From Pelomyxa schiedti (lineage: Eukaryota; Protista; Evosea), in the NCBI GenBank assembly GCA_020536535.1, contig JAHLWZ010000381.1, positions 662-18,495 on the forward strand: a stretch of DNA of 17,834 nucleotides. Reading direction: 5' to 3'. Of this stretch, positions 2,238 through 17,310 are shown in pieces. Numbering within the stretch: the first letter of the stretch is position 1; every line of letters starts with the position of its first letter. A program made the translations under genes and the position numbers. Under the pieces are notes generated by a model. It had not been told where the DNA came from and searched no databases. It saw nothing but the letters and a program-made list of their open reading frames with translations.

Positions 2238-3173
2238 TTCTTCCCTACACAGCACCGCTCACAGATTGTCTGATGCTTACTTCTTGGCTGTTTGTTTTGT
2301 GGGCTAACTTGCTTGCTTTCTTCTTTACTCTCACCTTCTTCAACTAGTTGTTTGTCCTTAAGTGGTGTTGTTATTTTTCATTGTCTATTTGTCCCGTCTG
2401 CCACACAACCAGTAGTCACGTCATCTGTGCACTTTTTAAAACGATCAAAAGTTTTAACTGCAACTGATCGTTCCTCGAATCGGTTCTCTTGTCTTGGAAA
2501 CAAAACAAAAAAAACCCAAGCCGTTCGGCAGTAGGCACCGCGACCTTCAAAAACAAAAGAAACAAAAAGTGCGTGTGGGTTATATCCGGTTTTTTGGTCC
2601 ATGTTGTGTTTGTGTTTTTTTTTTTTTTTCCCTTTGAACGATGTGACACAAACGGAGGTGACGTACCCACCCATAATGCGCTGGAGATATCATTGCAATC
2701 CTCCTGTTCGTGTTTGCCTTCCTTGTTGCAGTTCTGGCTGTTCTTGGCTACCTTGCCCACCGATTCGCTGGCAAGGCCTAAACTCAAGACAAAACCAATC
2801 CCATAAGCACGCCAACCTAGTTGGTGCTGCCTTGTTTATGCACTTGTTGGCTAGGGAGTACAACGTCCCTAAACCAGCCAAATGAAAACAAGTGGTACTA
2901 ATAGATCTATGACAACGTGATAGACCATTGGCTTTTGTGGTTGGGACCAACGATCTCCGAGCTCGCACTACCAGGGGAGAAAATAGCAATAGCTCCTGCT
3001 CCAACTTAGTCATGCCCATTACATAGAACGGTGCACCTTTTTCAGTGTCGTTTCGGCGGCGTAAAAACGAAGATTCGGGCTACCGTCTGGCGGTTTTTTT
3101 AAAAAAAAATTAAGAAAACAAGCAACAAAACAAGCAAATTAAACAAAACAACAAAAAACCTCGGCTTCGAAAC
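2238..3173. promoter_or_regulatory. divergent intergenic region between the minus-strand small gene and the + strand NACHT-TPR gene. It contains a T17 tract (about 2614-2630) and an A-rich leader at 3095-3165. It is a probable bidirectional promoter and 5' UTR region.
   Basis: No convincing coding potential. The ORFs here are low-complexity K- or F-rich. Homopolymer tracts are present. Confidence 0.3.
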
Positions 3174-3308
3174 ATGGCAGCGAGTGAGAGGGGGGTGTTT
3201 AGCGACCACGTGTTTTTCCTTCTGGATCTTCCGGCTCCCAACAAAAAAAGTGTGACGCAAATCATACGAGACTATGGGGGAGAAGTCTCTTCGATGCCGT
3301 CAAAGATG
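3174..3308 (+). CDS. NACHT-TPR gene exon 1, the first half of the BRCT domain (MAASERGVFSDHVFFLLDLPAPNKKSVTQIIRDYGGEVSSMPSKM)
   Basis: ATG at 3174 and strong donor GTGAGT at 3309. Shows the BRCT pattern (hydrophobic core and the GG motif). Confidence 0.65.
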
Positions 3309-6300
3309 GTGAGTGAAACGTTTTGGATTTTGTAGTAAGTTTTGAGTCTGAGTTGATTTGTTTAGGTTACACATGTTGTGGTTAGGCCTGATGATTTGAG
3401 CAGTAATTCATTCAAAGTTCAAGCGATTCTCAAAAAGAACCCAGCAATGCAAGCTGTTCTCGAGACGTGGGTGCAAGATAAAACGAGAGGTGCCAGGAAG
3501 GTGGCACCAAAGCCAAAAGCTCCACCACCTCCACCTACACCTGCCTTTGTTCCACCAGAGGATGACACTATGTCCATGATCAGTGTCAGGACAACTTCGT
3601 CAGTGGCTTCTTCCGCGTCTGCTCTTGCACAAGTTGTTCCAGCGAAACCTGTCCCAGTACCTACTGTAACAATGGTCTTGCCAACTTCAGGTTTTTTGGG
3701 AAAATAAACTGTAACCCGACTTATGCTCCACAGGGCCAAATACTGGAGATTTCCGGCTTGCTCTTTTTGGTGTACACTTTAGACCAGGGCCAGGATTTAA
3801 GCTGAAAATAGGTTCCGTTACAGCAACGGAATACGAGTTCCATAGTAGCTCTTCTGTTATTGTAAATGTACCTCCTTGCACGTATGTTCCCTTCAATGCA
3901 ACAATAAGTCTGAAAGTCTTTAGGGTGCCTCCCGGAACTGTTCCTATACACGCCACAAATGACAATGGGCGCCACTATGGTTTTCCAATGGAGTTCCGTT
4001 TTTATGGTATTTTGTTAAAAAAAACCTATTCCTTCCTCACTAATGAATGAATAGATGCTGGTGCCGGCCAACTTTCCCAGTCAGTTGAACAAAAGGTTCT
4101 TGTGGGTGGTGAGTTCCTTCTACATTAACTTGCTGTCAGATTGCCATTCTCCGTGGGCAGCTTACAAACGTCCGAAGGGCCATTTCTAATATCCAACAAA
4201 CTGAAATCGATTTGAGGACGCAGCTTGCTCAACTCACTGATTTGAAACTATTGGAAGAGCTGGAACCCGAGGAGGTTGAATATATCTTTTGTGTGGAGAC
4301 TTTTTAAGGATTTTAGGTACCTCCTGAGCAAGCTGTGGCAGCTACAGAGAAACCGGCACCTCTTCGACATGAGGAGTTTGAGAGGGAAATTAGGATCTTC
4401 ATTTCCAGTCCATTCAGGGACATGAAGGAGGAGCGAGAGAAGATTGTGTGTTGCTTGTATTTCCTTGTCTCAATTTCCTTACGTTTAACACCATCTACCA
4501 TAGGTTAAACTTGTCATCCCCAAAGTACGCAAGTTATGTATGTCATTAGATGTTGCTGTCAGCTATGTAGATCTAAGATGGTACCTTTTTACTTCTTTAT
4601 TTTGTCTCACGTTTCTTTTTAGGGGTGTCACTGGGGCGCAAAGTGAGCAAGCCACTATGCTTTTGATGTGTCTAAGAGAAGTTGCCAAGTCAAATGTATT
4701 TGTGGGACTTTACGGGGAGCGTTACGGATGGGCAATTTCCAATGAGGGTGACACAAGTAACAACGACCTTCTAAGTCGCTCCTTTGATCTTGCTGCACGT
4801 GAATTCCCGTGGATTAACGAATACAGGGACAGAAGTGTTACTGAACTCGAGATGCGAATGGTACTGGTTTCTATACTGCTTTGCCATGTTCTGATCGTAA
4901 TCAGCTTCTTGGGCATAAATATGATGGTTCTAATAAACCTGCATGGTTCTATCTCCGTGATCCGTATTTCATCGAAGAAGTACCCAAAGAGCAAAGACAT
5001 CTCTTTGTGTCTGAAGGCCCAACTGCAAGTAGAAAGTTATCCACACTCAAGACAGATGTGCATAAAGCTGGACATCCTGTAAAGGACTACCTTCGAGCTG
5101 ATCAGATGGCCGAATTTATGTTTGAGGACTTAAAACAATATGTTGCTAAGAAGTATCCCGAGGTTGACCTACATTTTATCACTCTGAAATTGACCTGTTC
5201 CCAGGGTATGTCACTCAGTGACGAAGAACGTGAAGACCTCCGACATAAGCTCACTTCGCGAAACCTCACCCGTGTATACCTACCAAATGAAAGTAACTTC
5301 CTGGAACTTGACAAATTTGTCTCAAGTGAGAAGGAGTTACCTATGGTCATTGTTGGAGGGGTAGGGAGCAACAAATCCCTCTCCCACATTTAATATGCAC
5401 ATAGGGTGGCAGCGGCAAGTCTGCTTTGATGGCCAACTGGGTGATGAGACACAAGGTACTCAAATAATCATTTTCTCGTTAATATGATAAGGAGCACCAC
5501 CCCGAAGACGTAATTGCATTACACTATGTAGGCTGTTCGCCAGCATCAACGAATTATGCTTTCTTGCTTGGCAGGCTTATGCGGCTGGTACACGCCACTT
5601 TTACCACAGTGAAATTTACTCCATTAGATATCAGAACAACTTGGTGCCGCTGTCGATCTTCCATCTGATCAAAGCAAAACCCCTCTTGCATTTGTTACCT
5701 GGCTTTCCAACCTTTCAGTAGTAAATGTCAACAACCGCCGTATTGTGAGTTTTCTTCTCTTGCGCTTTTATCCAACTAAATTATTCAGATTGTGGTTATC
5801 GATGGTCTTAATAAGTTGGATGAACGAGATAATGCGCAAGAATTATTGTGGTTCCCTCAGTAAGCCAATATTGTCATCTTTATATGCGTTCTTAGTTTTC
5901 AAAAGAACTTTCCCGAGGTTCATGAGTGTCATAGTAACAACAGCTCCGATCCAAAGGATTGCGCATACCCTCAAAGTACCAAAGCCTTCCTTTGGTATTC
6001 AATTTACGCTTTGTAGAAACGCAACTGCCCAACAATGGACCTTGCTCTACTTGAGGAAGCAGAGCGCAAATCTTTTGTCCGAATGTACTTGAACCAGCGT
6101 GCAAAGAAGTTATCTGATCAGCAAGAATTTATGATTGCTTCCGCTGAGCAAACAGCTAATCCCAGGTTCGATTTATTTGGAGACTTAGACTTTTTTTTAT
6201 GCACTGTAGATTCTTACAGACACTCCTTGATGATATTGCAGTATTCGGGGAGCACGAAGCACTCGAAAAACGGATTAAGCAATGTCTTGCAGCGAAGAAC

Positions 6301-8904
6301 ACATCTAAGCTATATGAGCTTCTTCTCAACAGACTTGAATCGGACTATGACCCTGCAAAGAAGGGAATAGTGAAGCTATTCATGGCTTTAATTGGTGCAT
6401 CTAGACGTGGTCTCGATCTAGAAAACGAGGTTTCCGTATTGCTCGAGCAGAGTGGGATCACGCCTGATGAATGGTGCCCCTTTCCACTTCCGCTTTGTCT
6501 TCTGCCCTCTTACACTTGCCACTGCTAAACTTTTAATTACCAATTTAAGGTCCCCTCTGTTTGTAGTCATCGAGGAGCTTTTTATATCTATGAGAGGTAT
6601 ACTGAGCTTCGCAAACGAGGATATTGCTAAGGCTGCAAGATCTGTCTTCCTTTGGGATAAAACAATTAGAAACCAATTTCATCTTAAGATAGCAAATTTC
6701 TTCTCTGGTATACAAGGCTTTACAGAAAGAAAGGTTTCCATCCCAAAAAAAAAAAAAATCAAATTCCTAACTAAAACAAATCAAAAGCTTGAAGAGTTAC
6801 CTTACCAGTTGGAGATGGCCGAAGAATGGCCAAAATTAGTTGCTCTTCTCTGTGATGCAACTCTCTTTGATAAACTCTTCACACCTACAACCAAGTTTGA
6901 CCTGGTACATCTAGAGCCAAAATATTTTGTCTTATTTATGATCAATCCAGTTCCATTGGGTTCGACTGTGTGAAGGCAATGTGCCAGGATTTGATATTTG
7001 TGCCCCGTTTTTGGATAAAGTGTCTCGGAGTATATTCCCACCTGACCTTATCCCAGCTGATTTCTGTTATAAGTAAGTCATTACTGAAACATGACCCGCT
7101 AAAAAACATTACCCATAGGGTTGGCCGGTGCTTTGACGAAATGTCAAAGATTAAAGGAGCCGAGGTAATGTACCAAAAAGCTATTGAGTTATACTATGCC
7201 ACATCCATGCCTCTTGAAGTCGCCAAAGTCAAACGATACTTAGCACAGCTGTACCACATGACCAGCAGGTTTGTCATACCCACCTCGTTTGTTGGTCAAT
7301 TTTTGAAGGAGCGACAAAGCTGAAGCAATGCTGAAGGATCTCACTGAAATTTACGAAAAGGAGAAGGGTCCTGATGATATTGAGATAGCAACTACGTTAA
7401 ACAGTTTGGGAAGTCTATATGTTGACCTTTGCCAGTAAACTGTTCATGACAAGAAGTCAACTATTTACCTTTTTCACAGGGGACCAAGTGCACATCCTGT
7501 TCTAGAACGAGCTTTGCGAATATGTAAGTGACCTTTCCAGGCTTTCTAAGCGTTAAACTACAACAAGGCGAGGCACAAGTCGGTCCTGATCACAATATTA
7601 CTGCTGATATCGCTTATACTCTTGGTGCTTTATATCATTACGAGCGCGACTTACTTCCCAAAAATCTCGAAAAATCGGAAGAATTTCTCAAGGTACCTCT
7701 CCACTCACTAATACAAGTCTTACATGTGACTTAGCGAGCACTGAATATCAAAGAAAAGACATTTGGCTACTACCACCCAGATGTTGCGTGGGTGCTCAAT
7801 AAACTGGGGTGTGTGTACATGGAACAAGATCAGTATAATGATGCTGAAGAGTGCTTTACTGTATGTGGCACTCCTCATCGAGCCTCAGCACTAACTTCCC
7901 TTTAACAGATGGCACTAGAAATTCGAGAAATCTCCCTTGGACCAAAGCACGCTTCCGTAGCACAATCACTGGAAAATGTACTAACACTATTCGCCCTTCA
8001 GGAACGCTACACAACTGCCGAAGACTGTGGCAGAAGGTTGACTATAATAGTGCAATCAGTCCGCTAATGCTTATCTCTCTATAGAGCACTTGACATTCTC
8101 TCTGAAACCTTTGGAGAAAATAGCTTCCAAGTGAGCAGCATATTGCTTCGAGTGGGTGCCCTCATGTTTGTAATGGAGAAGAAACCTCAAGGGACACAAG
8201 ACCTGACTCGCGCAATTGCAATTCGCACAGCGCTTTTTGGACCAGGTCGGTGACGTGCTCTCCATTTGCTTTACTCAAACCCCCCGCCCCCGCCCTCTTC
8301 CAGATCATCCACACACAAAGGAGGCAAAGCTGACCCTGGAGGAGCTGGTGGCACCACCCAAGCCGGAACCGCCATCGATCAGGGAGCAGCCCAAGGCCCC
8401 ACCCCCGCCGCCACCCCCGCCTCCTCGCGCCTTCGTGGCCCCGCCGCCGCCACCCCCAACGCCCGGCGGTGCACCGGGCGGAATCCCGCCGCCCCCGCCG
8501 CCTCCACCTCCGCCGCCTCCCCCTCCTTCATCTGGAAAGCCGCCGCCCAAGACGAAGGTCACTGCTGCTGTGGCCCTGGAGAAGACTGAGAGTGTGTCGC
8601 TTGAGGATGCGATTCAGAAACAGACCGGGCTCCACCACGTCACGGAGGCGAATGATAGGTCCAGCGCCAGGTTGATAATCTCTCTTTCTTCACATATGTA
8701 TTCCTGCCACTTACGGATATTCACACTAGCCGGAATGCAGCAGCCATGGCTGGACTCAAGACCCGTAGGATGGTTGAAGTGAAGGGCAAAGCCAAAGCCC
8801 CCAGGTCCACACTGGCACAGTTCTTGCAAGCAAACAAGGCCACAACCCAGTTCACACAGCAACCAGTACTGGATGTCAAGCCGACGATGGACAAGAAGAG
8901 CTGA
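3174..8904 (+). CDS. span of a multi-exon gene (at least 20 exons) encoding BRCT, IPT/TIG-like, coiled-coil, DUF4062, NACHT NTPase, TPR array, polyproline and WH2-like domains. It is an NPHP3-like STAND protein.
   Basis: A continuous in-frame exon chain with 19 introns of 36-76 nt. The domain motifs were read from the translation. Stop TGA at 8902-8904 and AATAAA at 8907. Confidence 0.75.
3366..3690 (+). CDS. exon 2: the second half of the BRCT domain (VTHVVVRPDD...) plus a Pro/Ser-rich linker
   Basis: Acceptor TTGTTTAG at 3365 after a 57-nt intron. Open frame to the donor at 3691. Confidence 0.6.
3734..4006 (+). CDS. exon 3: IPT/TIG-like beta-sandwich domain (PNTGDFRLALFGVHFRPGPGFKLKIGSVTATEYEFHSSSSVIVNVPPCTYVPFNATISLKVF...FRFY)
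   Basis: A 91-codon open frame with no Met, so it is absent from the ORF track. It is bounded by a 43-nt intron (3691-3733) and donor GTATTT at 4007. It shows the IPT/TIG sequence pattern. Confidence 0.5.
4080..4108 (+). CDS. exon 4, a small exon (VQLNKRFLWV); the acceptor choice is uncertain
   Basis: This is the only phase-compatible connection between exon 3 and exon 5. Donor GTGAGT at 4109. Confidence 0.35.
4161..4274 (+). CDS. exon 5: coiled-coil segment (LTNVRRAISNIQQTEIDLRTQLAQLTDLKLLEELEPEE)
   Basis: Acceptor GTGGGCAG at 4160. Heptad-like composition. A 42-nt intron follows. Confidence 0.55.
4317..4445 (+). CDS. exon 6: the start of DUF4062 (…EFEREIRIFISSPFRDMKEEREKI)
   Basis: The IFISSPFRDM motif matches the NPHP3-type DUF4062 N-terminus VFISSTFRDM. 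Confidence 0.7.
4504..4580 (+). CDS. exon 7: DUF4062 (VKLVIPKVRKLCMSLDVAVSYVDLRW)
   Basis: A 58-nt intron upstream and a 42-nt intron downstream. VDLRWG is a conserved DUF4062 motif. Confidence 0.7.
4623..4860 (+). CDS. exon 8: DUF4062 core (GVTGAQSEQ...CLREV...FVGLYGERYGW...VTELEMRM)
   Basis: GERYGW and TELE are hallmark DUF4062/NPHP3 motifs. The exon is 79 codons plus a split Trp codon. Confidence 0.75.
4905..5360 (+). CDS. exon 9: the linker into the NACHT domain (…AWFYLRD…ELPMVIVGG)
   Basis: 152 codons in phase 0. Ends in the first half of the P-loop. Confidence 0.75.
5405..5455 (+). CDS. exon 10: NACHT Walker A (GGSGKSALMANWVMRHK), which completes GGGGSGKS
   Basis: A 44-nt intron upstream and a 36-nt intron downstream. 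Shows the GxxxxGKS P-loop. Confidence 0.8.
5492..5587 (+). CDS. exon 11 (EHHPEDVIALHYVGCSPASTNYAFLLGRLMRL)
   Basis: Aligns to the NPHP3-type segment after the P-loop. Donor GTACAC gives a 40-nt intron. The alternative 19-nt intron was rejected. Confidence 0.6.
5628..5744 (+). CDS. exon 12 (ISEQLGAAVDLPSDQSKTPLAFVTWLSNLSVVNVNNRRI)
   Basis: Strong donor GTGAGT at 5745. Confidence 0.6.
5789..5859 (+). CDS. exon 13: NACHT Walker B (IVVIDGLNKLDERDNAQELLWFP)
   Basis: Shows the hhhhDGLxxLDE pattern. Strong donor GTAAGC at 5860. Confidence 0.75.
5906..5975 (+). CDS. exon 14 (QTFPRFMSVIVTTAPIQRIAHTLK), the WLP..LP..VrvIvTtR-type NACHT motif
   Basis: A phase-2/1 junction across a 46-nt intron. A 41-nt intron follows. 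Confidence 0.6.
6017..6165 (+). CDS. exon 15 (KRNCPTMDLALLEEAERKSFVRMYLNQRAKKLSDQQEFMIASAEQTANP)
   Basis: In-frame chain. Resembles the NPHP3/NWD-type region ...SKPQSANPLYL. Confidence 0.6.
6210..6473 (+). CDS. exon 16 (RFLQTLLDDIAVFGEHEALEKRIKQCL...VLLEQSGITPDEW)
   Basis: A 44-nt intron upstream. Shows the conserved ...LLxELRVFGxxE-like motif. Confidence 0.6.
6550..6960 (+). CDS. exon 17 and possibly one more exon: the helical region leading into the TPR array (SPLFVVIEEL...KLEELPYQLEMAEEWPKLVALLCDATLFDKL...). The internal exon structure is not resolved. It contains an A13 tract encoding KKKK.
   Basis: A single long open frame. LPYQLxxAxxWxxL resembles the NPHP3/TEP1-type LPYHL..AGEW motif. 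Confidence 0.5.
7000..8245 (+). CDS. TPR array of kinesin-light-chain/NPHP3 type, with at least 6 TPRs over several exons. Examples: AIELYYATSMPLEVAKVKRYLAQLY; LKDLTEIYEKEKGPDDIEIATTLNSLGSLY; ALNIKEKTFGYYHPDVAWVLNKLGCVYMEQDQYNDAEECF; ALEIREISLGPKHASVAQSLENV; ALDILSETFGENSFQVSSILLRVGALMF. Exact exon boundaries were not derived.
   Basis: A repeating 34-aa pattern, A..L.NLA.LY...G.Y.EAE.L..RAL.I.EK..G..HP.VA, in successive short ORFs joined by GT..AG introns. Confidence 0.65.
8304..8670 (+). CDS. penultimate exon: polyproline tracts (PPPPPPPPP...PPPPPPPPPPPPPPP) followed by a verprolin/WIP-type WH2-like motif (SLEDAIQKQTGLHHVTEANDRS)
   Basis: Phase-1 junction from the last TPR exon (donor GTCGGT at 8246, a 58-nt intron). 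The Pro-rich, FH1-like tract and the ...L(K/H)(K/H)VxxxNDRS WH2 consensus are both present. Confidence 0.55.
8730..8904 (+). CDS. terminal exon (SRNAAAMAGLKTRRMVEVKGKAKAP...MDKKS*), with stop TGA at 8902-8904
   Basis: A 59-nt intron (8671-8729), an in-frame stop, then AATAAA. Confidence 0.5.
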
Positions 8905-8906
8905 GG

Positions 8907-8912
8907 AATAAA
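8907..8912 (+). promoter_or_regulatory. polyadenylation signal AATAAA, 3 nt after the stop of the NACHT-TPR gene. A second AATAAA lies at 8947-8952.
   Basis: Read directly. Confidence 0.6.
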
Positions 8913-9132
8913 ATGCCATGGATTGTATTGTGAGGATTAACTACCTAATAAACTCTTGTGTTGCAACCTCAATCCACATGAACAATTACCAAGTTCATTC
9001 TTCTCCACGAAAGTACTTCCTCAAGGGAAGTTCCCCAACAAAAAAAGCCAACCGCCCATTTTTGAGGTTTTTTCCTGCTACGAAAGTCTTCGCGTTGTTA
9101 ACAGATTTAATTTGATCGAATTCTGCCCGATC

Positions 9133-9267
9133 ATGGCGTCAACGGGCGGGTGCTGCGTGCTGCTGTGCGTGGGTAGTGTGGACACAAAAAAGAAGGCAAG
9201 GAGTCAACTGCGTGAGTGTGTCAACAAAGTGAAAGGCTTCACCACAAGTTTCGTCTTCGGCCCAAAG
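9133..9267 (+). CDS. PARP4: PARP4-like gene exon 1, the first half of the BRCT domain (MASTGGCCVLLCVGSVDTKKKARSQLRECVNKVKGFTTSFVFGPK)
   Basis: ATG at 9133. Aligns to the PARP4 N-terminal BRCT (…KKKLQTDIKENGGKFSFSLNPQC) recalled from memory. Donor GTCCGT at 9268. Confidence 0.65.
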
Positions 9268-9280
9268 GTCCGTGCGTGCT

Positions 9281-9347
9281 TTGGTTGTGTTTTTTTTTGG
9301 TTTTTTTGTTTTGTTTTTTGTGTTTTGGTTTTTTGCTTTTGGTTGTC
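9281..9347. repeat. imperfect (GTTTT/GTTTTTT)n T/G-rich microsatellite inside intron 1 of the PARP4-like gene
   Basis: Read directly. It belongs to the same motif family as the repeat at 344-411. Confidence 0.85.
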
Positions 9348-9394
9348 TGTGATCATGTTAATTTTTTTTTCTCTTGGTTGTGTGGACTGCACAG

Positions 9395-9487
9395 GTGACA
9401 CACGTAGTCGTTGACGATGTCGGCTGGAGGATATTTTCTATTTCTCCAAGGAAGATTGACTTGATAAAGAGATTGCGGATACACGTG
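9395..9487 (+). CDS. PARP4: PARP4-like exon 2, the second half of the BRCT domain (VTHVVVDDVGWRIFSISPRKIDLIKRLRIHV)
   Basis: Acceptor CTGCACAG at 9394 after a 127-nt intron. Strong donor GTGAGT at 9488. Aligns to THIILDNADVLSQYQLNSIQKNHVHI. Confidence 0.65.
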
Positions 9488-9556
9488 GTGAGTTGGATGT
9501 TTGAAATTTCCGGAATCTTGTTAGCCACCTTTTTTTTACGACTCTATTTGAATTAG

Positions 9557-9850
9557 GTTACACCTGCCTTTTTAGATGCCTGTACATCAAATAGCAGAAT
9601 TATGGAATGCTCAGATTTTGTGTATAATACTGTGAAGGAGGTTGTACTGAGCACAGAACCTCAGATATACTTGCCACCACAAGAACCAGACCCTGTACCT
9701 CCTGCGCCTGCTGCCTCCAGGGATACTTATATTCGAAGGGAAGTCATTGTTCCCTACAAATCCAAAGATGACCCTTTTAATGAAGCGGGTGCCTGGCTCG
9801 TTCAACACCATCTACTGCAAAAGCCATCATGGTTAGATCATTTTCGTTTC
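9557..9850 (+). CDS. PARP4: PARP4-like exon 3, 3' end approximate (…MECSDFVYNTVKEVVLSTEPQIYLPPQEPDPVPPAPAAS…)
   Basis: Acceptor TGAATTAG at 9556 with a 69-nt intron. Aligns to PDFIWKSIREKRLLDVKNYDPYKPLDITPPPDQ. Confidence 0.5.
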
Positions 9851-9882
9851 TAAGTATCCCTCTTTTCTAATTCGTTTCTAGC

Positions 9883-10191
9883 TTGGTGAAACTAGAATTG
9901 CATACCCGCAGCTCTTCTGATAATGCTTGGCGTGTGTATGAAGAAGTTGTGCCATGCCTTTCCACTGTGCCACCACAGACAAATACTCAGGGGAAATCAA
10001 AAAAGACCATCTCCCAACCAACACACAGGAGGCTGAGCCATCTCTTAGCCTCGGCCTCAGAGGCTATTTCTGTGTACTCCGCTCTCTATGAGAATTATAC
10101 CAACGTTGAAGGCTACACCCGCGTTGGAATACCTCCGTTTTCTTCCTTGGGATCAGATTTGGTATATGCTTCTCCAACGTTCTTTTTTTAA
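9883..10191 (+). CDS. PARP4: PARP4-like coding segment, exon boundaries not derived (…SEAISVYSALYENYTNVEGYTRV…)
   Basis: Aligns to the PARP4 segment SEDASEYFENYIEELKKQGF, recalled from memory. Confidence 0.35.
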   Translation: MVKLELHTRSSSDNAWRVYEEVVPCLSTVPPQTNTQGKSKKTISQPTHRRLSHLLASASEAISVYSALYENYTNVEGYTRVGIPPFSSLGSDLVYASPTFFF

Positions 10192-10711
10192 CTATTAAAA
10201 GATAGGTAATGGATTAAGTCCCGGGTCTGTTCTTCCTGCAATGATATCACAGCTTGTGCAAGTCATTTTTAACGGTCAGTGATGATAGAACTCTGTTTTC
10301 GAATAACATTTTTCAGCTTCATCTTCTAAGTTTGCTGGCTTGAATACTATGACACTGGATATATCATTAGACACTCTAAATGAGGCAGAGGCTATTCTAT
10401 GGTCCCTGCAAGAGCTTAGCCTTTCCAATCAACAAGGCTCTCCGAAATTCATTGAGGTATGGCACTTGAACTCGATCTTTCTCTGTGTAAATTATTTTAA
10501 CAGCTAAATGATAAACTTTCCTCGTTGCTCCCATTTAGTGATCAGCACATAACCTCAAATGAAGCATTGCTTGAGAAATATGAGTTCATCCAAACTCTAA
10601 AAGATTCTCTTTGCCTGAATGAAGGTACCCACTAAACGTGCATATTTAAGCTAATTTTCACCAGGGATCACACTTCCAGGCAGTTCTGTACAGTCCAACT
10701 CCATCATAGAT

Positions 10712-10960
10712 ATGCATTACCGCAGTCTCAATTGTCGTTTGGAATATACAGATGATCCTGCTGTGAGAGAGCTAACTTCCCGTGTCCAAGCCTCTCTAAC
10801 ATCAGCCCCTACCTTGCTACACGTGGAACATGTGTTTCATGTTGCGCGCCCTTCGGAAAATGAAGTCTTTTCTAATGTGGGTAATGTGAAACTTCTATTT
10901 CACGGTACCAAAGTGGAGCGGGTAGCTGGTATTCTTTCACATGGACTGGTTTTACCAAAG
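10712..10960 (+). CDS. PARP4: PARP catalytic domain, part 1 (…NVKLLFHGTKVERVAGILSHGLVLPK), with the donor-loop His-Gly-Thr motif. The 5' boundary is approximate.
   Basis: LLFHGTxxxxxxxILSxGL matches the PARP signature LLWHGSRxxNxxGILSQGL. Donor GTTTCC at 10961. Confidence 0.65.
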
Positions 10961-11096
10961 GTTTCCCTCAAAGCAATTCGATCTATTTTCTCAGTGCCTT
11001 AGGTTTCTGTAACTAAACTTGGAATCAAGAGAGTGGATGCTGGCCAACTTGGGGTGCACATTTGTTTCGTTTAGTTTCGTTTTACATGCCCTACAG

Positions 11097-11285
11097 AATG
11101 GTATATACTTTGCAACAGATGCCGCTGTAAGTGCTAAATACTGTAACTCTTTTGGGGAAACGTCGTTCCTATTGGTGGCTTCAGTTTCCTTAGGCAAATC
11201 TATGGATACACCAGCTCCACGAGTAGGAACCACTGCCGACACTTTACCCAACGGGTATCTGGAAATTCGAAGGGAATTTATTCTC
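11097..11285 (+). CDS. PARP4: PARP catalytic domain, part 2 (NGIYFATDAAVSAKYCNSFGETSFLLVASVSLGKSMD…). The 3' boundary is approximate.
   Basis: Acceptor CCTACAG at 11096. GIYFAxxxSKSxxYC is the PARP signature. Ser sits at the position of the catalytic Glu (LLVASVSLG against LLLGEVALG). Confidence 0.65.
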
Positions 11286-11309
11286 TAATATGTTTCTTCA
11301 GATTCCACA

Positions 11310-11810
11310 GTGTGCACTCCATCCCGAGGCATACCGACCCCAACTCGGCCTTCGAGGATGAGGAATTCTGTGTACCTCTCCCAATTTGTGAAACTGCATC
11401 ATGACCACCGACAGGTATTTGATAGCCGACAAATAATCCTGGAATACATTATCCAACTTACAAAAGCCCCTAAATCAATACCATCAACACTACCAATGCC
11501 GTCTTTTCCACAAGTTTCAATCTCTGATCCAACCACCGCCCCAGACGATCTGAAGTCTATTTTTCTTGCACCACCTTCTCTCAGCGTTTCACCCACGAAA
11601 AAGCAATCTCCTGTATACCCGGTTTTGATTGGTCAAGGCGGAGTACGTTTTTCAGTTGAAAGTACAACTGTGGCAGCCAGAATACTTGATTTAGTGGCTG
11701 AAGTTGTAGTTATTCAACATTTTAGCAATACTGGCGTTGTAGCTTGTGAAGCGAAGTATATATGCCCAATAGATAGCCATGGTTGTATATCTGCCCCCAC
11801 AATACTCTAA
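11310..11810 (+). CDS. PARP4: VIT (vault protein inter-alpha-trypsin) domain region (…VYPVLIGQGGVRFSVESTTVAARILDLVAEVVVIQHFSNTGVVACEAKYICPIDSHGCISA…). Exon boundaries were not derived.
   Basis: Aligns to PARP4 VPLEDVHIKGRIIDTVAQVIVFQTYTNKSHVPIEAKYIFPLDDKAAVCGF, recalled from memory. Confidence 0.5.
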   Translation: MCTPSRGIPTPTRPSRMRNSVYLSQFVKLHHDHRQVFDSRQIILEYIIQLTKAPKSIPSTLPMPSFPQVSISDPTTAPDDLKSIFLAPPSLSVSPTKKQSPVYPVLIGQGGVRFSVESTTVAARILDLVAEVVVIQHFSNTGVVACEAKYICPIDSHGCISAPTIL

Positions 11811-12377
11811 CCTCTCCTAGCTGCTGTTTGTGCTTTCGAATGTTACATAAATGACAAGCATGTAGTGGCACACATAGAAGAAAAAGGTCTTTTTCTTTTT
11901 TTATTGTGCCAATTGAAACAATGTCAAATATTAGGTAAGGCTCGAAAAGAATACAAAGAAGGTACACGTTTGTGCTTGACTTTTTTGTAACTTATAAGAA
12001 TACAGCAATTGAGCAAGGGCATGGAGCGTAGGTAAGCCAGATTCCTTCTACTTCTTTACCTCTATTAGGTATTTACTCGAAGAAGAATCCCCAGATGCAT
12101 GGTGCATGTCTCTTGGAAATCTTCCAGGCATATCTTGCCATGATGTTCTTACTTCCTCTTATTCTTCAAAGCAAACGCCGAAATTGTTGTTAAAATTACA
12201 TATGTGGAAGACCTGGCTTTAGCATCTAATGGGGTAAGTCCGTCAAAAGTAGTGAAATTTGTGTCTAATCAACAATACTCAGATTACCTTTACCTTACCT
12301 GCGGCTCTTGCCGGCCGTGAGGACCGTCTCAATAGTGTAACAACAACCCAAACGGCAGTTGCAACAGTTATCAAAGT

Positions 12378-12662
12378 ATGCTCCAAACAACTAGGGTAGG
12401 TATCTCATTTAGTCAGGCTCATTCCAGCGCGCCGTCATTCCATTTGGAAGCGGGAATTACTATGCCCTATGACATCACTGGCATCACTTCACCATCTCAT
12501 TTGAAAGATGTTCAAGTGAAACACACCAACACAAAGGCAACTGTCAGGGCTTTAATGACGGAACTTACAGCAGACTTTGTACTACTTATTTCTATCAAGA
12601 ACGCCCATGAACCCCGAATGTGGTTGGAAGTAAAGGACTCATCTCTACTGCTTTTTACTTAA
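12378..12662 (+). CDS. PARP4: VIT C-terminal region (…ITMPYDITGI…ALMTELTADFVLLISIKNAHEPRMWLEVKDSS…). Exon boundaries were not derived.
   Basis: Aligns to PARP4 SIEMPYVIEFIF…GFSLHIGLSAAYLPRMWVEKHPE, recalled from memory. Confidence 0.5.
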   Translation: MLQTTRVGISFSQAHSSAPSFHLEAGITMPYDITGITSPSHLKDVQVKHTNTKATVRALMTELTADFVLLISIKNAHEPRMWLEVKDSSLLLFT

Positions 12663-12671
12663 CACTTTCAG

Positions 12672-13148
12672 GTGGATGATACACAAAACTGGGCAGCGAT
12701 GATTTCTATATCCCCAGATTTTCAAAATTATATACAGTCTGCCTGTCAGAGCAGATCTGAGGTCATATTCGTGGTTGACAGGTCCATAAGCATGGCCTCC
12801 AATCTTGCAACTTTACGTTGGGCTCTTCAGGTAATCAGATGGATGATTTTGCACTCTCACGAAACTCAGATACTCATATCCCAACTGGGAAGTGAGGATA
12901 TGTTTAATGTAGTTGGATTTGGATCCCACTTTGAGTCGTTATTTGTACAGTCGCAATCTGCAACTTCCGCCAAACCTGTCGGGTACAGATATGCCCAAAT
13001 GTTACAAGCCACCTTTGGGGGTACTTCCCGTCACCATACCTCCCTCCCCAAGCTTAATCACCTTTTTCAACAGGCACAAATCTTTACTCTGTTCTCAGAG
13101 CAGTGTTTTCTCTTGGTCAATCCAATGACTTCTCTTCAAGAACAGTAA
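12672..13148 (+). CDS. PARP4: von Willebrand factor A (VWA) domain with the MIDAS motif DRSIS (…SEVIFVVDRSISMASNLATLRWALQV…DMFNVVGFGSHFESLF…MLQATFGGT…). Exon boundaries are approximate.
   Basis: Shows the VWA pattern hhhhhDxSxSM....hh......FnhhxFgs........A..Ggt. Confidence 0.6.
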   Translation: MDDTQNWAAMISISPDFQNYIQSACQSRSEVIFVVDRSISMASNLATLRWALQVIRWMILHSHETQILISQLGSEDMFNVVGFGSHFESLFVQSQSATSAKPVGYRYAQMLQATFGGTSRHHTSLPKLNHLFQQAQIFTLFSEQCFLLVNPMTSLQEQ

Positions 13149-13678
13149 TCCTTCTCACTGATGGCCTTTTTGACATTTTTCCCGTATTGCCCATAGTGAA
13201 AAGGTGGAGAGACTCCTTGTATCTCAGTATTAAATCTGTTTAGTGCCCGGGCTCACACCAAACTATTTACTGTTGGAATCGGGGAGGCATCCAGGCATTC
13301 TATTTGCACCCTTGCACGGATAGGTGGGGGATGCTGTCAGTTCGTTCCATCCAATCCCTCACCCAAACATGAGAAACTGTTGAATCACATGTTAGCACAA
13401 CGAAATCAAAATGTGGCTTCCCTAAATTTGGAACATTCTTATACTGTTTTAGACTTTATCTGGTATAAACATCAAGTGGCACACAACACACACAATTAAG
13501 CAAGTACCCTCTGAAATTTACAATATGTTTCAGAATCAGGTTTTCCTCCAAGACTAGTTTTCCTTTTTCTAACACATTAAAGTCTTATACTATTTATGGT
13601 CTCCTTAGTGGCATATGTAACCAGGTGTCAATTCAGGGGAATATCGGAGCACAGTTTTACCCTCACCCAATAAATTAG

Positions 13679-13874
13679 TGGTAATCGAGAGCAGGGAGTT
13701 TTCCACAACAGTGTCATCAAGTGAACTTACTGCTACACATGGCACATTGATTCACAAACTGGCAGCCAGAGAGCTTATTCGAGATTGGGGGGAAAATTCT
13801 CTCCACGAACAGGATACAGAGCACTTTGTACAAAAAAATAATATGGTTTCAGATGTTATTGCTCTAAGTAAAAA
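13679..13874 (+). CDS. PARP4: PARP4-like exon (…TTVSSSELTATHGTLIHKLAARELIRDWGENSLHEQDTEHFVQKNNMVSDVIALSKK). The acceptor is approximate.
   Basis: Aligns to PARP4 TTELQKTTGTMIHKLAARALIRDYEDGILHENE, recalled from memory. Donor GTATGG at 13875. Confidence 0.55.
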
Positions 13875-13928
13875 GTATGGATATCAAAATACAAAAATGG
13901 AGTTAGGATAGTAATATACTACAAAAAG

Positions 13929-14025
13929 GTATGGCTTCATCACTCCTTTTACTTCTTTTGTGGCAGTGGAAGAGAGAAACCGTAATGACGCCTTAGTTTT
14001 GAAAGCACCTTCAGTGAAAGAGATT
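13929..14025 (+). CDS. PARP4: PARP4-like exon (YGFITPFTSFVAVEERNRNDALVLKAPSVKEI)
   Basis: A 54-nt intron (13875-13928). FTSFVAVE matches PARP4 FTSFVAVEKRDE, recalled from memory. GTA at a codon boundary (14026) gives a phase-0 donor. Confidence 0.55.
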
Positions 14026-14068
14026 GTATCAGAGTCTAAATTTTTGTACTTCCTTTGACTGCCAACAG

Positions 14069-14251
14069 CTGCAAGGCCATGACGTCGATGAAATCAAAGA
14101 AATTGCTTGGGAGCATGACCTTGAACCAGTCCCAAAGAAGGACGAACTTCAGAAACAACGAGATTCAAATTCCTTTTCCATTGCTCTTTATGGTGACCCA
14201 CAGACTGGTATAAAAACTCACCCACACTTTTACCTCCTAAGACATCTCAAG
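14069..14251 (+). CDS. exon entering the Ran-like domain (LQGHDVDEIKEIAWEHDLEPVPKKDELQKQRDSNSFSIALYGDPQTGIKTHPHFYLLRHLK). There is no in-frame ATG, so it is probably a continuation of the PARP4-like ORF through a 43-nt intron (14026-14068).
   Basis: FSIALYGDPQTGIKT-HPHFYLLRHL aligns to Ran [21 protein letters not shown]. The P-loop carries a one-residue insertion that displaces the Lys. Donor GTAAAA at 14252. Confidence 0.65.
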
Positions 14252-14324
14252 GTAAAACAGCTTGGCTAAAACGCATGGTTTTTCCTTCAAATTTGCAACC
14301 CAATCCCCATTTATACAACTACAG

Positions 14325-14660
14325 CTGAGCGGGGAGTTTGAGCACAAATACATTGTAACCCAGGAGCCAGAGCAATTCAAACTGACTCTAAGTACAAATC
14401 GAGGTGCTATCCACTTTAATTTGTACGACATGCCTGGTGTAGCTACCAGCACAGCAACCCCTCCTACTGCCCATGATGGTAGTATAGTCTTCTTTGACGT
14501 TACTTCTCGCGCGTCATATAAAAATCTGCCCATCTGGTACATGAAGGCTGGAAGCACTTCCGGTTCACCTACAAGTCCAGTTGTTGTATTTGTTGGCAAT
14601 AAAGTGGACTGCTCAGAACGGAAACTTCATGCTCGACAAATTGTCTTTCATAAGAAAAAG
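14325..14660 (+). CDS. Ran-like GTPase domain core (LSGEFEHKYIVTQ…RGAIHFNLYDMPGVATSTATPPTAHDGSIVFFDVTSRASYKNLPIWY…VVVFVGNKVDCSERKLHARQIVFHKKK)
   Basis: Collinear with Ran [39 protein letters not shown]…[22 protein letters not shown]…[26 protein letters not shown]. The G4 motif NKVD is conserved. G3 DTAGQ is replaced by DMPGV. Confidence 0.75.
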
Positions 14661-14705
14661 GTATTGGCTCTCCTTTCTCAAGTGTCTTCCTGATTGCCAA
14701 TTTAG

Positions 14706-14728
14706 AATTGCAAGTACTATGACCTAAG
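14706..14728 (+). CDS. 23-nt micro-exon (NCKYYDL), matching Ran NLQYYDIS
   Basis: Flanked by 45-nt and 44-nt introns (donors GTATTG and GTACCT). Confidence 0.6.
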
Positions 14729-14772
14729 GTACCTCCTTTTATGATATCCACTCTTAAGTATTTACTCTTTAG

Positions 14773-14832
14773 TGTTAAATCTTCGTACAACCTGGAGTCA
14801 CCTCTACTAAGTCTTGCCCGGTCCCTTTTATG
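14773..14832 (+). CDS. Ran-like exon (SVKSSYNLESPLLSLARSLL + C), matching Ran [21 protein letters not shown]
   Basis: The G5 motif SAK is retained as SVK. A 40-nt intron (14833-14872) restores the frame into the next exon. Confidence 0.55.
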
Positions 14833-14872
14833 GTTGTGCACAATCCTTCTCCCTGAATTTAATTCTTCTCAG

Positions 14873-16297
14873 TGACCCACAATTGGAGTTTGTTCAAGAA
14901 GTGGCACTTGCTCCACCTGAAGTAACTTTGGATCAGGCATTAATAAAGAGGTGGGAACAGGATTTAGCTGATGCAGCATCAATCCCCCTTCCCGATGAGG
15001 ATGATGACTTTGGAGGCACTGTTCCATCCAGTGCTGTCGCTCCTCAGCATGCAGTGCCGTCCAGTACCTTTGATTTCGCTCTCCGACCAAGCAAAGAAAA
15101 AAGTGCACCAGGTCCAACAGGCTTTTTCAGTCAATCTGCTACAGTTCCATCTGTGCAAGCTTCTGTTACCCATTCAGTACCATCTCTTTTTAGCTCTCCA
15201 GTTGCACCTTCCTTTAATTTCGCTTCACAAGCCACTACCTCTCGAGGGTTATTTTCTCCCCAAGGACAAGTGACGTCAACTCAACCTTCTCCTCTATTTG
15301 GCGCACCTCTGCCCTCCTATACTCCACCGGCCCCGTCACCTTTTGGTAGTTCTTCATCATTGTTTTCTGGCAGTTCGTTTGGATCTCAACCACAACCTTC
15401 TACCGCTGCATTTGGCACTGCAAGCACTTCTTCACTTTTTGGCGGATCCCAACAGGTACCTGCCTCGAGTGGGGGCGCTGTGAGTGCGTTTGGAGCTCTA
15501 GCATCTCCTACTTCCGTTTTTCCACAGGCATCATTTGGCATGGCAAGCCCTGCAATGTCCACTACAATCCCTGCAGCCACTTGTTGTCTGCCGTCCATCT
15601 TTCCTGCAGCCAGTTCTACTACTTCCACTCTCTTTTCTGCACCACAAATATTTCCCTCGGCCGCATCTTCCACAGCACAGTTGTTCCCAGCGCCTCAATT
15701 GTCCTCTTTCCCAACATTCAGTCTACCGGCCACTCCTGCAGCCAGTTGTACGTCCACCTTCAGTCTACAGGCCTTTCCTGCAGCCAGTTCTACTACTTCC
15801 ACTCTCTTTTCTACACCACAAGTATTTTCCTCTGCACCAACTTCCGTAACGGCGTTGCCGCCGGCGCAGCAATTACCGTCTTCCGCCACTTTTGCTCCAC
15901 CCACTACTCCACAGCTCAGGTCTCCACATCCTGGGACTGGAACAATTTCATTTGCAGCTGCCAGAGCGCGAAGCAAGGCATTTCAAAATAGGAAACACTC
16001 TGAATCAGATATTAGTAATACAAGCAAGTCTTCAATTGACCCTCCCTTGCCTCCGTTCTGCTGCCGTGCTTGTTGCAGCCCCTCCACACTCAGTGATTCC
16101 CAATTGCAGTTTGTACTTAAGGGACCTAAGAATACGAAGAGGATCTGGGGTGTGTGCTGGATGGATGCCGTTCTTGCATTAGCATCAACCTTGTCACCTT
16201 TACGTGACTGGGCATGTTGTACTAGGAACGGAGAACCTCCTATTGGCTATGCTGGCAGCTTACTTGAGTGTATCACATCATTTTTCCGCTGTTGGAT
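14873..16297 (+). CDS. Ran C-terminal tail (DPQLEFVQEVALAPPEV…LADAASIPLPDEDDD) that continues, with no stop, into a roughly 470-aa FG/SLFG/AFG-repeat low-complexity region (nucleoporin-like). It ends at TAA 16299-16301, or splices at the GTAAGT donor at 16298.
   Basis: A 495-codon open frame. DPQLEFV..ALAPPEV…PDEDDD matches the Ran C-terminus DPNLEFVAMPALAPPEV…LPDEDDDL. Many xFG, SLFG and FGxxS repeats follow. Confidence 0.65.
15568..15915. repeat. in-frame tandem duplication of about 174 bp inside the FG-like region, with unit starts CCTGCAGCCA… at 15568, 15603, 15736 and 15777
   Basis: Read directly. TTTCCTGCAGCCAGTTCTACTACTTCCACTCTCTTTTCT recurs at 15597 and 15771. The protein repeats are FPAASSTTSTLFSAPQIF and FPAASSTTSTLFSTPQVF. 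Confidence 0.7.
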
Positions 16298-16338: not shown

Positions 16339-16688
16339 ATCTGAGGACGTAGGAAGTGTAACTTACAATAAGTATCTGAATACGACACACAAACGCACAG
16401 CAAGCAAATTTTCCGATCTCGGATTCGCCGAAGGAAAGCCACAGTGCGTTGTCAAGGCACTCAATTGCTTGATTGAGGAAGCTTCACTATTTATTACAGA
16501 GGTAGGTAGAACATTCATGCTTTCCCTTACAAGCATGACTGTACAGGTACGAGACATTATTACTGTGCCCTCCACAAATCTTGGGGAGATCCTCACACGT
16601 AAATTGGAACAAATAATTCCGCAAATAATCACAATTTCAGAGTTTACTGTTGCAAGTGCACCTCCAAAGTGGATCATATGTATAAATA
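16339..16688 (+). CDS. tentative continuation exon after a 41-nt intron (ISEDVGSVTYNKYLNTTHKRTASKFSDLGFAEGKPQCVVKALNCLIEEASLFITE…WIICIN). The product is unknown, possibly the C-terminal globular domain of the PARP4-like protein.
   Basis: In-frame with the FG exon through GTAAGT 16298 and AG 16338. Open for 116 codons. Long ORFs on both strands overlap here. Confidence 0.3.
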
Positions 16689-16756
16689 GTACATGCAGGA
16701 AGATACCTCGTACCACTTTATACCAATACAAGCTAGGTCTAATTTGATTTTGATAG

Positions 16757-17310
16757 GGATACCAGACGATTGTGCCTATGTTTTGCATTCTTTCATTGTA
16801 TTTGAACCCATTGGGAAGTATTTTGACATGCCGGTGAATCACTTTGTTACCGTATCCCCCGACCAGAAGGGCTACTGGATATACGATGATCTGTTGTGCC
16901 TCACTCCTGGAGGTCTGTGCTCCCCGCACCATGCTTTCCACACAGTCGATTCTAATGCCGTAACAACAACAGAATGGCAAGGCGGATTCTGTTCGTGGGA
17001 CTCTCCGGACAGTACCCAAACATTCAAGAAACTCCGTTCCAAAGTTCCTGTGAGCACTCCTGATCCCAACCAACACCCTTCTCATGCCAACACATATAAT
17101 GACCAAACATTAGGTTTTCATTCTACGGCACCAAGATGTCCCTTGGCCACCAACAAGTACCTACCAGGCTCCTCGTTTGCGCTCCGAACAGTTCTCACAG
17201 TACTGAACTCCAACATTCTAAGCATAAAACAGAGAAGCATAAAGTTTCGTTTTTTTTTCATGTACACATTCCACACGGCCAAGACACAAAATCTGGTCCG
17301 TTCAGAATAA
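16757..17310 (+). CDS. tentative further exon (R IPDDCAYVLHSFIVFEPIGKYFDMPVNHFVTVSPDQKGYWIYDDLLCLTPGG…), with stop TAA at 17308-17310
   Basis: A possible 68-nt intron (16689-16756) joins the two + frames. AATAAA lies about 190 nt downstream at 17501. A 240-aa ORF lies on the opposite strand. Confidence 0.3.

Follow-up and report, generated by a model that had tools for sequence, protein, structure and literature searches.

A 17,834-nucleotide (nt) stretch of the Pelomyxa schiedti genome (contig JAHLWZ010000381.1, positions 662 to 18,495; hereafter the window, with coordinates counted from its first letter) carries two neighboring genes that both begin with a BRCT domain, which raises the question of whether one gene acquired this domain from the other. 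The upstream gene (gene 1, 3174 to 8904) encodes a STAND protein with NACHT and tetratricopeptide repeat (TPR) domains, and the downstream gene (gene 2, starting at 9133) encodes an ortholog of the vault PARP, PARP4. Both genes lie on the + strand, their introns are all GT-AG, and the window is gene-dense, with very short introns. The initial annotation of this DNA had described the two N-terminal regions as paralogous two-exon BRCT cassettes, the one in gene 1 having been copied from the PARP4 gene by exon shuffling or local duplication.

Pfam analyses identified a BRCT domain at the start of gene 1 and gave a borderline BRCT match at the start of gene 2. Specifically, residues 6-70 of the gene 1 protein matched BRCT (PF00533) with 33.0 bits (expectation value, E, 7e-8) when the N-terminal fragment was scanned and with 30.4 bits in the full protein, against a cut-off of 21.3 bits, while residues 9-85 of the gene 2 protein scored 21.7 bits as an N-terminal fragment and 17.4 bits in the full-length scan. 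Among solved sequences, the gene 2 BRCT matched human PARP4 BRCTs only (E 0.01). The gene 1 domain contains the core motifs VFFLL (β1), YGGE (the turn, within DYGGEV), VTHVVV (β3) and ETW (the α3 aromatic), and the corresponding motifs of gene 2 are CVLLC, KGF, VTHVVV and PAF. The first exons had both been described as containing GG, which is correct for gene 1 and not for gene 2, where the KGF turn has a single G. Used as a lone query, the second half of the gene 1 BRCT matched no solved BRCT. A single-sequence AlphaFold2 model of gene 1 residues 1-94 had a mean predicted local distance difference test score of 49. On the sequence evidence, we take each gene to encode a genuine single BRCT at its extreme N terminus.

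The 5′ ends of the two genes are organized similarly up to the first intron. Exon 1 of gene 1 (3174 to 3308) begins at the first in-frame ATG, at 3174, encodes β1-α1-β2 of the BRCT, ends with the peptide ...IIRDYGGEVSSMPSKM (last residues SKM) and has the donor ATG|GTGAGT. Exon 1 of gene 2 (9133 to 9267) likewise begins at the first in-frame ATG, at 9133, encodes the first half of the BRCT, ends with ...NKVKGFTTSFVFGPK (last residues GPK) and has the donor AAG|GTCCGT. Both exons are 135 nt long, so that the roughly 45 residues initially assigned to each are exactly 45 codons. Intron 1 of gene 1 (3309 to 3365; 57 nt, GTGAGT...TTTAG) is in phase 0 and stands directly before β3 (V-T-H); intron 1 of gene 2 (9268 to 9394; 127 nt, T/G-rich, GTCCGT...CACAG) is also in phase 0 and occupies the same position in the domain. 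As first noted, and as read directly in the sequence, exon 2 starts with VTHVVV in both genes, in gene 1 as VTHVVVRPDD at 3366 and in gene 2 as VTHVVVDDVG at 9395.

Downstream of this point the exon structures diverge. Exon 2 of gene 1 (3366 to 3690) encodes the remainder of the BRCT to about 3490, including ETWVQD at 3462-3479, followed by a 60-residue Pro/Ser/Thr/Ala-rich linker, and ends in phase 1. Exon 2 of gene 2 (9395 to 9487; acceptor CACAG|GTG, donor GTG|GTGAGT) comprises 31 codons for β3-α2 and is followed by a second phase-0 intron of 69 nt (9488 to 9556) inside β4, which has no counterpart in gene 1; exon 3 (9557 to 9831) then completes the BRCT (VTPAFLDAC...) and continues into a Pro-rich linker. 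The description as a two-exon cassette therefore holds for gene 1, and the BRCT of gene 2 is encoded by three exons.

The spliced peptides of both genes align without gaps over the exon junction to the crystallized human PARP4 BRCT, with V46-T47-H48 of each corresponding to human C45-T46-H47 and the intron falling at the equivalent of Q44|C45. This gapless alignment supports the splice sites and places both introns at the same position in the domain, as the initial annotation stated for position and phase alike. Assuming uniform placement, the probability that the single BRCT intron of gene 1 would coincide with either of the two in gene 2 is about 0.008, and a bias toward G|G phase-0 sites would raise it to perhaps 0.02-0.04. 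To our knowledge, the first BRCT of BRCA1 lacks an intron at this site, and the position is therefore not universal in BRCT genes. A literature search yielded no paper on the intron phase of BRCT domains or on their exon shuffling, nor did it turn up names of human PARP4 splice variants that would indicate an intron at c.132/133.

Only 228 nt separate the two genes, which have the same orientation; the BRCT is N-terminal in both, exon 1 has 45 codons in each, and the phase-0 intron occupies the same site. Because unrelated genes would rarely combine same-strand adjacency, N-terminal placement of the domain and an intron of identical site and phase, these data keep alive an old local capture of exons. 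BRCT genes make up roughly 0.1-0.2% of animal genes; by our own estimate from this fraction, the chance that a BRCT gene adjoins a given gene is below about 1%. Gene 1 may have captured the 5′ exons of PARP4 long ago, and we tentatively favor this reading. The event would have been an old partial tandem duplication that reached from the 3′ part of an NPHP3-like gene into the 5′ exons of PARP4. Its product would be a chimeric gene immediately upstream of PARP4 that inherited the PARP4 start codon and the phase-0 intron before β3. The two BRCTs would then have drifted apart until they were no closer than members of the family usually are, and one intron would have been gained or lost.

Several observations weigh against a capture. 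Smith-Waterman alignment of exon 1 with exon 1 gave a z score of −0.34, which is the level of shuffled sequences (2000 shuffles), and phmmer detected no match between the two BRCTs even at E 1000 with filters off. DNA similarity was absent in the exons, introns and upstream regions, where tblastx was empty and blastn returned low-complexity matches only, and tblastn of each protein against the other gene and against the upstream 3 kb found no remnants of a duplication. The second BRCT intron is present in gene 2 only, and the 3′ boundaries of the two BRCT cassettes, and their phases, differ. Among solved structures, the best match of gene 1 exon 1 was a TopBP1 construct (24.9 bits, E 1.9e-4, 18/50 identical), above PARP4. 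A profile built from the gene 2 and human PARP4 BRCTs gave gene 1 a score of 7.5 bits and gave higher scores to Chs5 (20.4), REV1 (18.4), Pol lambda (17.4), Rad4 (16.7), TopBP1 (15.3) and PAXIP1 (14.0). A BRCT-less NPHP3-like parental gene is not found upstream within the window. Finally, neither protein database searches nor metagenome scans provided a related genome with which to date or confirm the capture. The gene 1 N terminus had no match in a protein collection that evidently lacks close eukaryotic relatives; gene 2 and the gene 2 plus human PARP4 profile retrieved only PARP1/2-like proteins with WGR from this collection, which evidently lacks PARP4; two metagenome scans, with the gene 1 N terminus and with PARP4, yielded nothing confirmed; and a 495-aa open reading frame had no entry on record.

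These comparisons bear most directly on a recent event. A recent local duplication of the two-exon cassette, or gene conversion between the neighbors, is extremely improbable and was ruled out: beyond the identical hexapeptide and the equal length of exon 1 nothing speaks for it, whereas the nucleotide identity of the two first exons is 28%, compared to 25.7 ± 3.8% for shuffles, the first introns, of 57 and 127 nt, are unrelated in sequence, and the blastn and tblastx searches found no match beyond the low-complexity runs. Even within the hexapeptide, encoded by GTT ACA CAT GTT GTG GTT from 3366 and by GTG ACA CAC GTA GTC GTT from 9395, only 14/18 bases are common to both genes and 4/6 codons differ at synonymous third positions.

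The hexapeptide itself is the family-wide β3 core of BRCT domains, in which T-H followed by three aliphatic residues is the signature; its counterparts are VTHVIV in an unrelated TopBP1 BRCT and CTHIIL in human PARP4. Identical VTHVVV is therefore no evidence of paralogy. Consistent with this, BLASTP of the two N termini returned nothing relevant (one irrelevant stretch, E 1.2), and Smith-Waterman alignment of the whole domains gave a z score of 2.65 that came entirely from VTHVVV..DD. The proposal of paralogous cassettes was thus not upheld, there being no significant similarity beyond VTHVVV by BLASTP, Smith-Waterman, phmmer or DNA comparison. As for the proposed copying of a PARP4-type BRCT, the absence of DNA similarity removes a recent copy and the positional evidence leaves an old capture plausible.

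Two further resemblances between the genes were considered and set aside. The 13-nt string ACACCTGCCTTT, which encodes TPAF, is identical in both genes (codons 3537-3548 and 9560-9571, the string starting one base earlier), and about 0.015 such matches are expected by chance. As a trace of duplication it was rejected: in gene 1 it lies in the linker after the complete BRCT and in gene 2 at the start of exon 3, in β4, and its spacing from VTHVVV differs. Because the domain positions differ, we judged the match coincidental. In addition, the A/C-rich 5′ untranslated region of gene 1 (3090-3160) resembles the reverse complement of the T/G-rich intron 1 of gene 2 (9285-9345), at about 76% over 62 nt; both sides are low-complexity (AAAAC)n-type runs, and the match was not accepted as cassette homology. 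A six-frame search found no third BRCT copy in the window.

Is the BRCT of gene 1 of PARP4 type? Against all solved structures it matched only TopBP1 tandem-BRCT constructs, the human PARP4 BRCT and MCPH1 (12 bits). Human PARP4 was the second family, with 15-17 bits (E 0.06-0.2) and both exons covered, and when the human PARP4 BRCT was searched against the six-frame translation of the whole window the top match was gene 1 exon 1. The first BRCT of the TopBP1 constructs 5U6K, 3UEN and 6RMM, which we take to be BRCT4/5, was the best solved match to exon 1. However, a TopBP1 origin was rejected, as this single 24.9-bit score falls to 17-18 bits with TopBP1 constructs of other sequence. The remaining three constructs scored at this level over exon 1 only, and such scores of TopBP1 orthologs from other species are within family-level noise. 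Moreover, the TopBP1 match ends at β3, where TopBP1 has ADYAVV and gene 1 has VTHVVV, and the TopBP1 BRCT belongs to a tandem pair whereas that of gene 1 is single.

Human PARP4 (9DEV, 9DFO-9DFR; PMC12212138) is like the window genes in having a single BRCT at its extreme N terminus, with a Pro-rich linker behind it. The alignment covers human residues 19-97 for gene 2 (E 0.01) and residues 7-69 for gene 1, with L-P, K-K, R and G-G of gene 1 at human L18-P19, K23-K24, K31 and G34-G35; gene 1 differs in having Ser at the F39 position and gene 2 in lacking the GG. In an alignment bridged via human PARP4, the gene 1 and gene 2 BRCTs are identical at 13/45 columns (29%) and share 29% and 24%, respectively, with the human domain, so the three BRCTs are about equidistant. 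These similarities are low. With the human PARP4 BRCT as query, REV1 scored 22.3 bits, Rad4 18.5, TopBP1 18.4, gene 2 18.4 and gene 1 15.6; that is, the window BRCTs match human PARP4 with 15-19 bits, no higher than the human domain matches those of REV1, Rad4 and TopBP1. Because a true ortholog, gene 2, scores no better than unrelated BRCTs, BRCT sequence is unable to assign a subfamily at this distance. Given this low power, the missing similarity excludes a recent copy and not an old one, and on the question of an old common origin the sequence comparison is close to neutral.

The principal competitor to an old capture, and a reasonable possibility, is that the two BRCTs are unrelated in origin. 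In that case, the STAND gene would have taken its BRCT from some other source or from an older gene of BRCT-TIG type, and its adjacency to PARP4 would be accidental. The shared intron would reflect parallel insertion at a G|GT proto-splice site that the conserved Val codon creates, or else an ancient position that several BRCT genes have in common. Both junctions are indeed G|GT, and G|G context is found at 9/28 gene 1 introns, with phase 0 the commonest. The lack of similarity past the β3 core, the poorer score of gene 1 on the PARP4 BRCT profile than those of several other families, the TopBP1 BRCT as its best solved match and the divergence of exon structure after the first intron also fit unrelated origins. 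However, two independent coincidences are then required, a BRCT gene beside PARP4 and an intron of the same site and phase, which by rough estimate have a joint probability below about 1 in 1000. On the positional evidence and the arrangement predicted for a duplication product, we therefore rank an old local capture first and unrelated BRCTs second.

Either of these readings takes the BRCT to be part of the STAND protein, which depends on the gene 1 model. This manual model comprises 29 exons over 3174-8904 with an uninterrupted frame of 1457 codons (1457 aa). Its 28 introns are 36-78 nt long (mode about 44; phases 0/1/2 = 15/4/9) over 4374 nt of coding sequence. The exon that follows the BRCT linker (exon 3, 3734 to 4006) encodes an IPT/TIG domain (Pfam TIG 22.5 bits, cut-off 20.9 bits). 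The remainder (4140 to 8904, stop codon at 8902-8904) encodes a coiled coil, DUF4062 (54.9 bits), NACHT (37.0 bits, with Walker A GGGGSGKS and Walker B IVVIDGLN) and an NPHP3-type helical/TPR region (TPR_NPHP3 131.1 bits, TPR_12 134.2 bits), while NPHP3_N (20.8 bits) and NPHP3_hel (19.2 bits) fell under their own cut-offs. The domain order is thus BRCT, Pro-rich linker, IPT/TIG, coiled coil, DUF4062, NACHT, TPRs, a poly-Pro tract and a WH2-like tail. We identify gene 1 as an NPHP3-like STAND nucleoside triphosphatase (NTPase) that is extended at the front by a BRCT and an IPT/TIG domain, in agreement with its initial identification as a NACHT-TPR gene. It shares with nephrocystin-3 (NPHP3) and NPHP3-like STAND NTPases the DUF4062-type N-terminal domain, the NACHT P-loop and the NPHP3-type TPR array, and differs from NPHP3 in the BRCT, IPT/TIG and coiled coil in front and the poly-Pro/WH2-like tail behind. 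A full-text literature search found no description of a BRCT-NACHT architecture, and the searchable literature gave no account of an NPHP3-like NACHT-TPR protein that begins with BRCT-TIG.

The weakest link of the model is the join of the BRCT-TIG region to the STAND region (4007 to 4139). An in-frame connection between 4006 and 4140 requires either a micro-exon of 11-17 nt, running from 4085 to 4095 or 4101, or the use of a poor acceptor at 4113, the sole place in the model where this is so. Read through, the segment meets a stop codon at 4048, after which a new ATG follows at 4055, from which an in-frame splice to the coiled-coil exon can be made via a 31-nt intron. The BRCT-TIG region (3174-4006) might therefore be a separate small gene or an alternative 5′ end, and the NACHT-TPR protein would then start without a BRCT. 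We regard such an artefact of the gene model as unlikely: the stop and the next ATG are only 4 nt apart with no polyadenylation signal (AATAAA) between them, at least two canonical GT-AG paths preserve the frame, the remaining 26 introns are uniform and tiny, and an intron of 31 nt would fall below the 36-nt minimum of the other gene 1 introns.

At its other end, gene 1 has a long poly-Pro tract with an unbroken run of 16 Pro, and behind it a WH2-like motif, SLEDAIQKQTGLHHV, at 8597-8641 (8304-8658 for the tail as a whole). This ending suggests an actin-related tail on a STAND protein. The spacer to gene 2 (8905 to 9132) is the 228 nt given above and contains AATAAA at 8907 and 8947.

The identity of gene 2 is well supported. 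Against human PARP4 (11jf_P) it gave an E of 1.3e-106 and 360.8 bits over the helical, catalytic, VIT and vWA regions, compared to 54.6 bits for PARP1, and its Pfam scores were 80 bits for PARP, 49.3 for VIT, 37.5 for VWA_3 and 36 for Ras. The remainder of the gene (9882 to 16297) encodes the helical and catalytic domains of PARP as well as VIT, vWA and, in frame, a Ran-like domain, together with a region rich in Ser, Pro, Phe and Gly. The model of this 3′ part is approximate, as the exon-chaining parser over-splices and skipped exon 2, and it serves as a rough guide only; within this approximate model the alignment to human PARP4 reaches human residue 1217. In vault PARP, a C-terminal region binds the major vault protein. 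A BRCT at the start of PARP4 is textbook, and that of gene 2 is the ancestral first domain of the PARP4 family. Gene 2 also has the architecture by which the vault-PARP clade (5A) is defined, in which a BRCT precedes a central PARP catalytic domain and VIT and vWA come after it (PMC2964712). It is thus a PARP4 ortholog, as had been proposed.

Unlike human PARP4, which has nothing like it, gene 2 contains a complete Ran-like GTPase domain in frame (14069-15011), with an E of 8.7e-51 to Ran residues 10-215, including the DEDDDF tail. Its exons lie at about 14069-14251, 14325-14681, 14706-14728, 14774-14830 and 14873 onward. The domain has no ATG of its own and begins within an exon that also carries the PARP4-homologous HDVDEIKEIAW. 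Its P-loop is degenerate (GDPQTGIKT) and its switch II reads YDMPGVA as compared to WDTAGQE, with NKVD retained, and because of these features it looks like a pseudo-GTPase insert. The long open exon 14873-16297 is Ser/Pro/Thr/Phe/Gly-rich and contains the FG-like motifs PLFGAP, SPFGSSSSLFSGSSFG and SLFGGSQQ. Together, the FG-like region and the Ran-like domain recall nuclear-pore components. Vaults have been tied to nuclear pores in literature that the vault-PARP article cites (PMC2964712).

The genome is very compact, judging from the tiny introns of gene 1 and the short spacer. Elsewhere in the window, a GGTTTT-type microsatellite at 356-403 reads as (GF)n, several flanking open reading frames of 100-250 aa, including 1947-2255 (− strand) and 16363-17106 (− strand), had no Pfam match, and an initial guess of an eIF2-alpha-like exon near 430-560 was unconfirmed by Pfam.

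What might a BRCT do at the front of a STAND protein? The human PARP4 BRCT binds nucleic acid in vitro, including vault RNA, and K23, K24, K31, K36 and F39 have been examined as candidate contacts (PMC12212138). At these positions, gene 1 has K-K and a basic residue at K23, K24 and K31, Glu at K36 and Ser at F39, and gene 2 keeps the equivalents of F39 and K31 and has its K-K-K run displaced. The putative nucleic-acid-binding residues are thus kept in different subsets by the two genes, which offers no evidence for a common ligand, and the shared upstream recruitment signal suggested in the initial annotation would be conjectural. The BRCT of gene 1 may serve as an N-terminal module that docks nucleic acid, ADP-ribose or a phospho-ligand, placed before a NACHT oligomerization switch with the TPRs as sensor, and by analogy with other STAND proteins the BRCT-TIG region would be the N-terminal adaptor of this switch; in PARP4 the same kind of docking module would stand ahead of the catalytic domain. 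A stronger version, in which the PARP4 exons were captured and the two proteins also became functionally coupled, would have the BRCT-NACHT-TPR protein dock on the ligand of PARP4, whether vault RNA, some other nucleic acid or the ADP-ribose that PARP4 makes, in a role like that of TEP1. We consider this coupling doubtful. Rfam and ARAGORN searches of the window detected neither vault RNA nor tRNA.

If the BRCT of the STAND gene did come from PARP4, the locus would be a clean case of a signaling NTPase taking the docking module of its neighbor via partial tandem duplication, and would point to a physical or functional link of a STAND switch with the vault/ADP-ribosylation system, of which TEP1 is the sole known example. 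If the BRCTs are unrelated, what remains is an ordinary PARP4 BRCT and, on an NPHP3-like protein, a combination of domains that is unremarkable though previously unreported. As a general lesson, identical VTHVVV in two BRCTs marks the family core and not paralogy, and at this distance the subfamily is not assignable from BRCT sequence.

The arrangement that an old capture would have produced has a precedent in chimeric genes formed by partial tandem duplication. Drosophila Sdic is a chimeric gene that arose in this way from neighboring genes. Similar to the arrangement seen here, such chimeras are predicted to carry the 5′ exons of the downstream gene and to lie directly upstream of it; in the known cases, DNA similarity and the parental copies are still visible, whereas neither is visible at this locus. 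On the side of function, the nearest comparison is TEP1, a NACHT-containing protein of the vault particle. TEP1 has TROVE and WD40 domains where gene 1 has a BRCT and TPRs, and no homology outside NACHT is implied. Nevertheless, TEP1 is a STAND protein that is tied functionally to PARP4 and has an N-terminal RNA-binding module, and in these respects gene 1 may resemble it by analogy.

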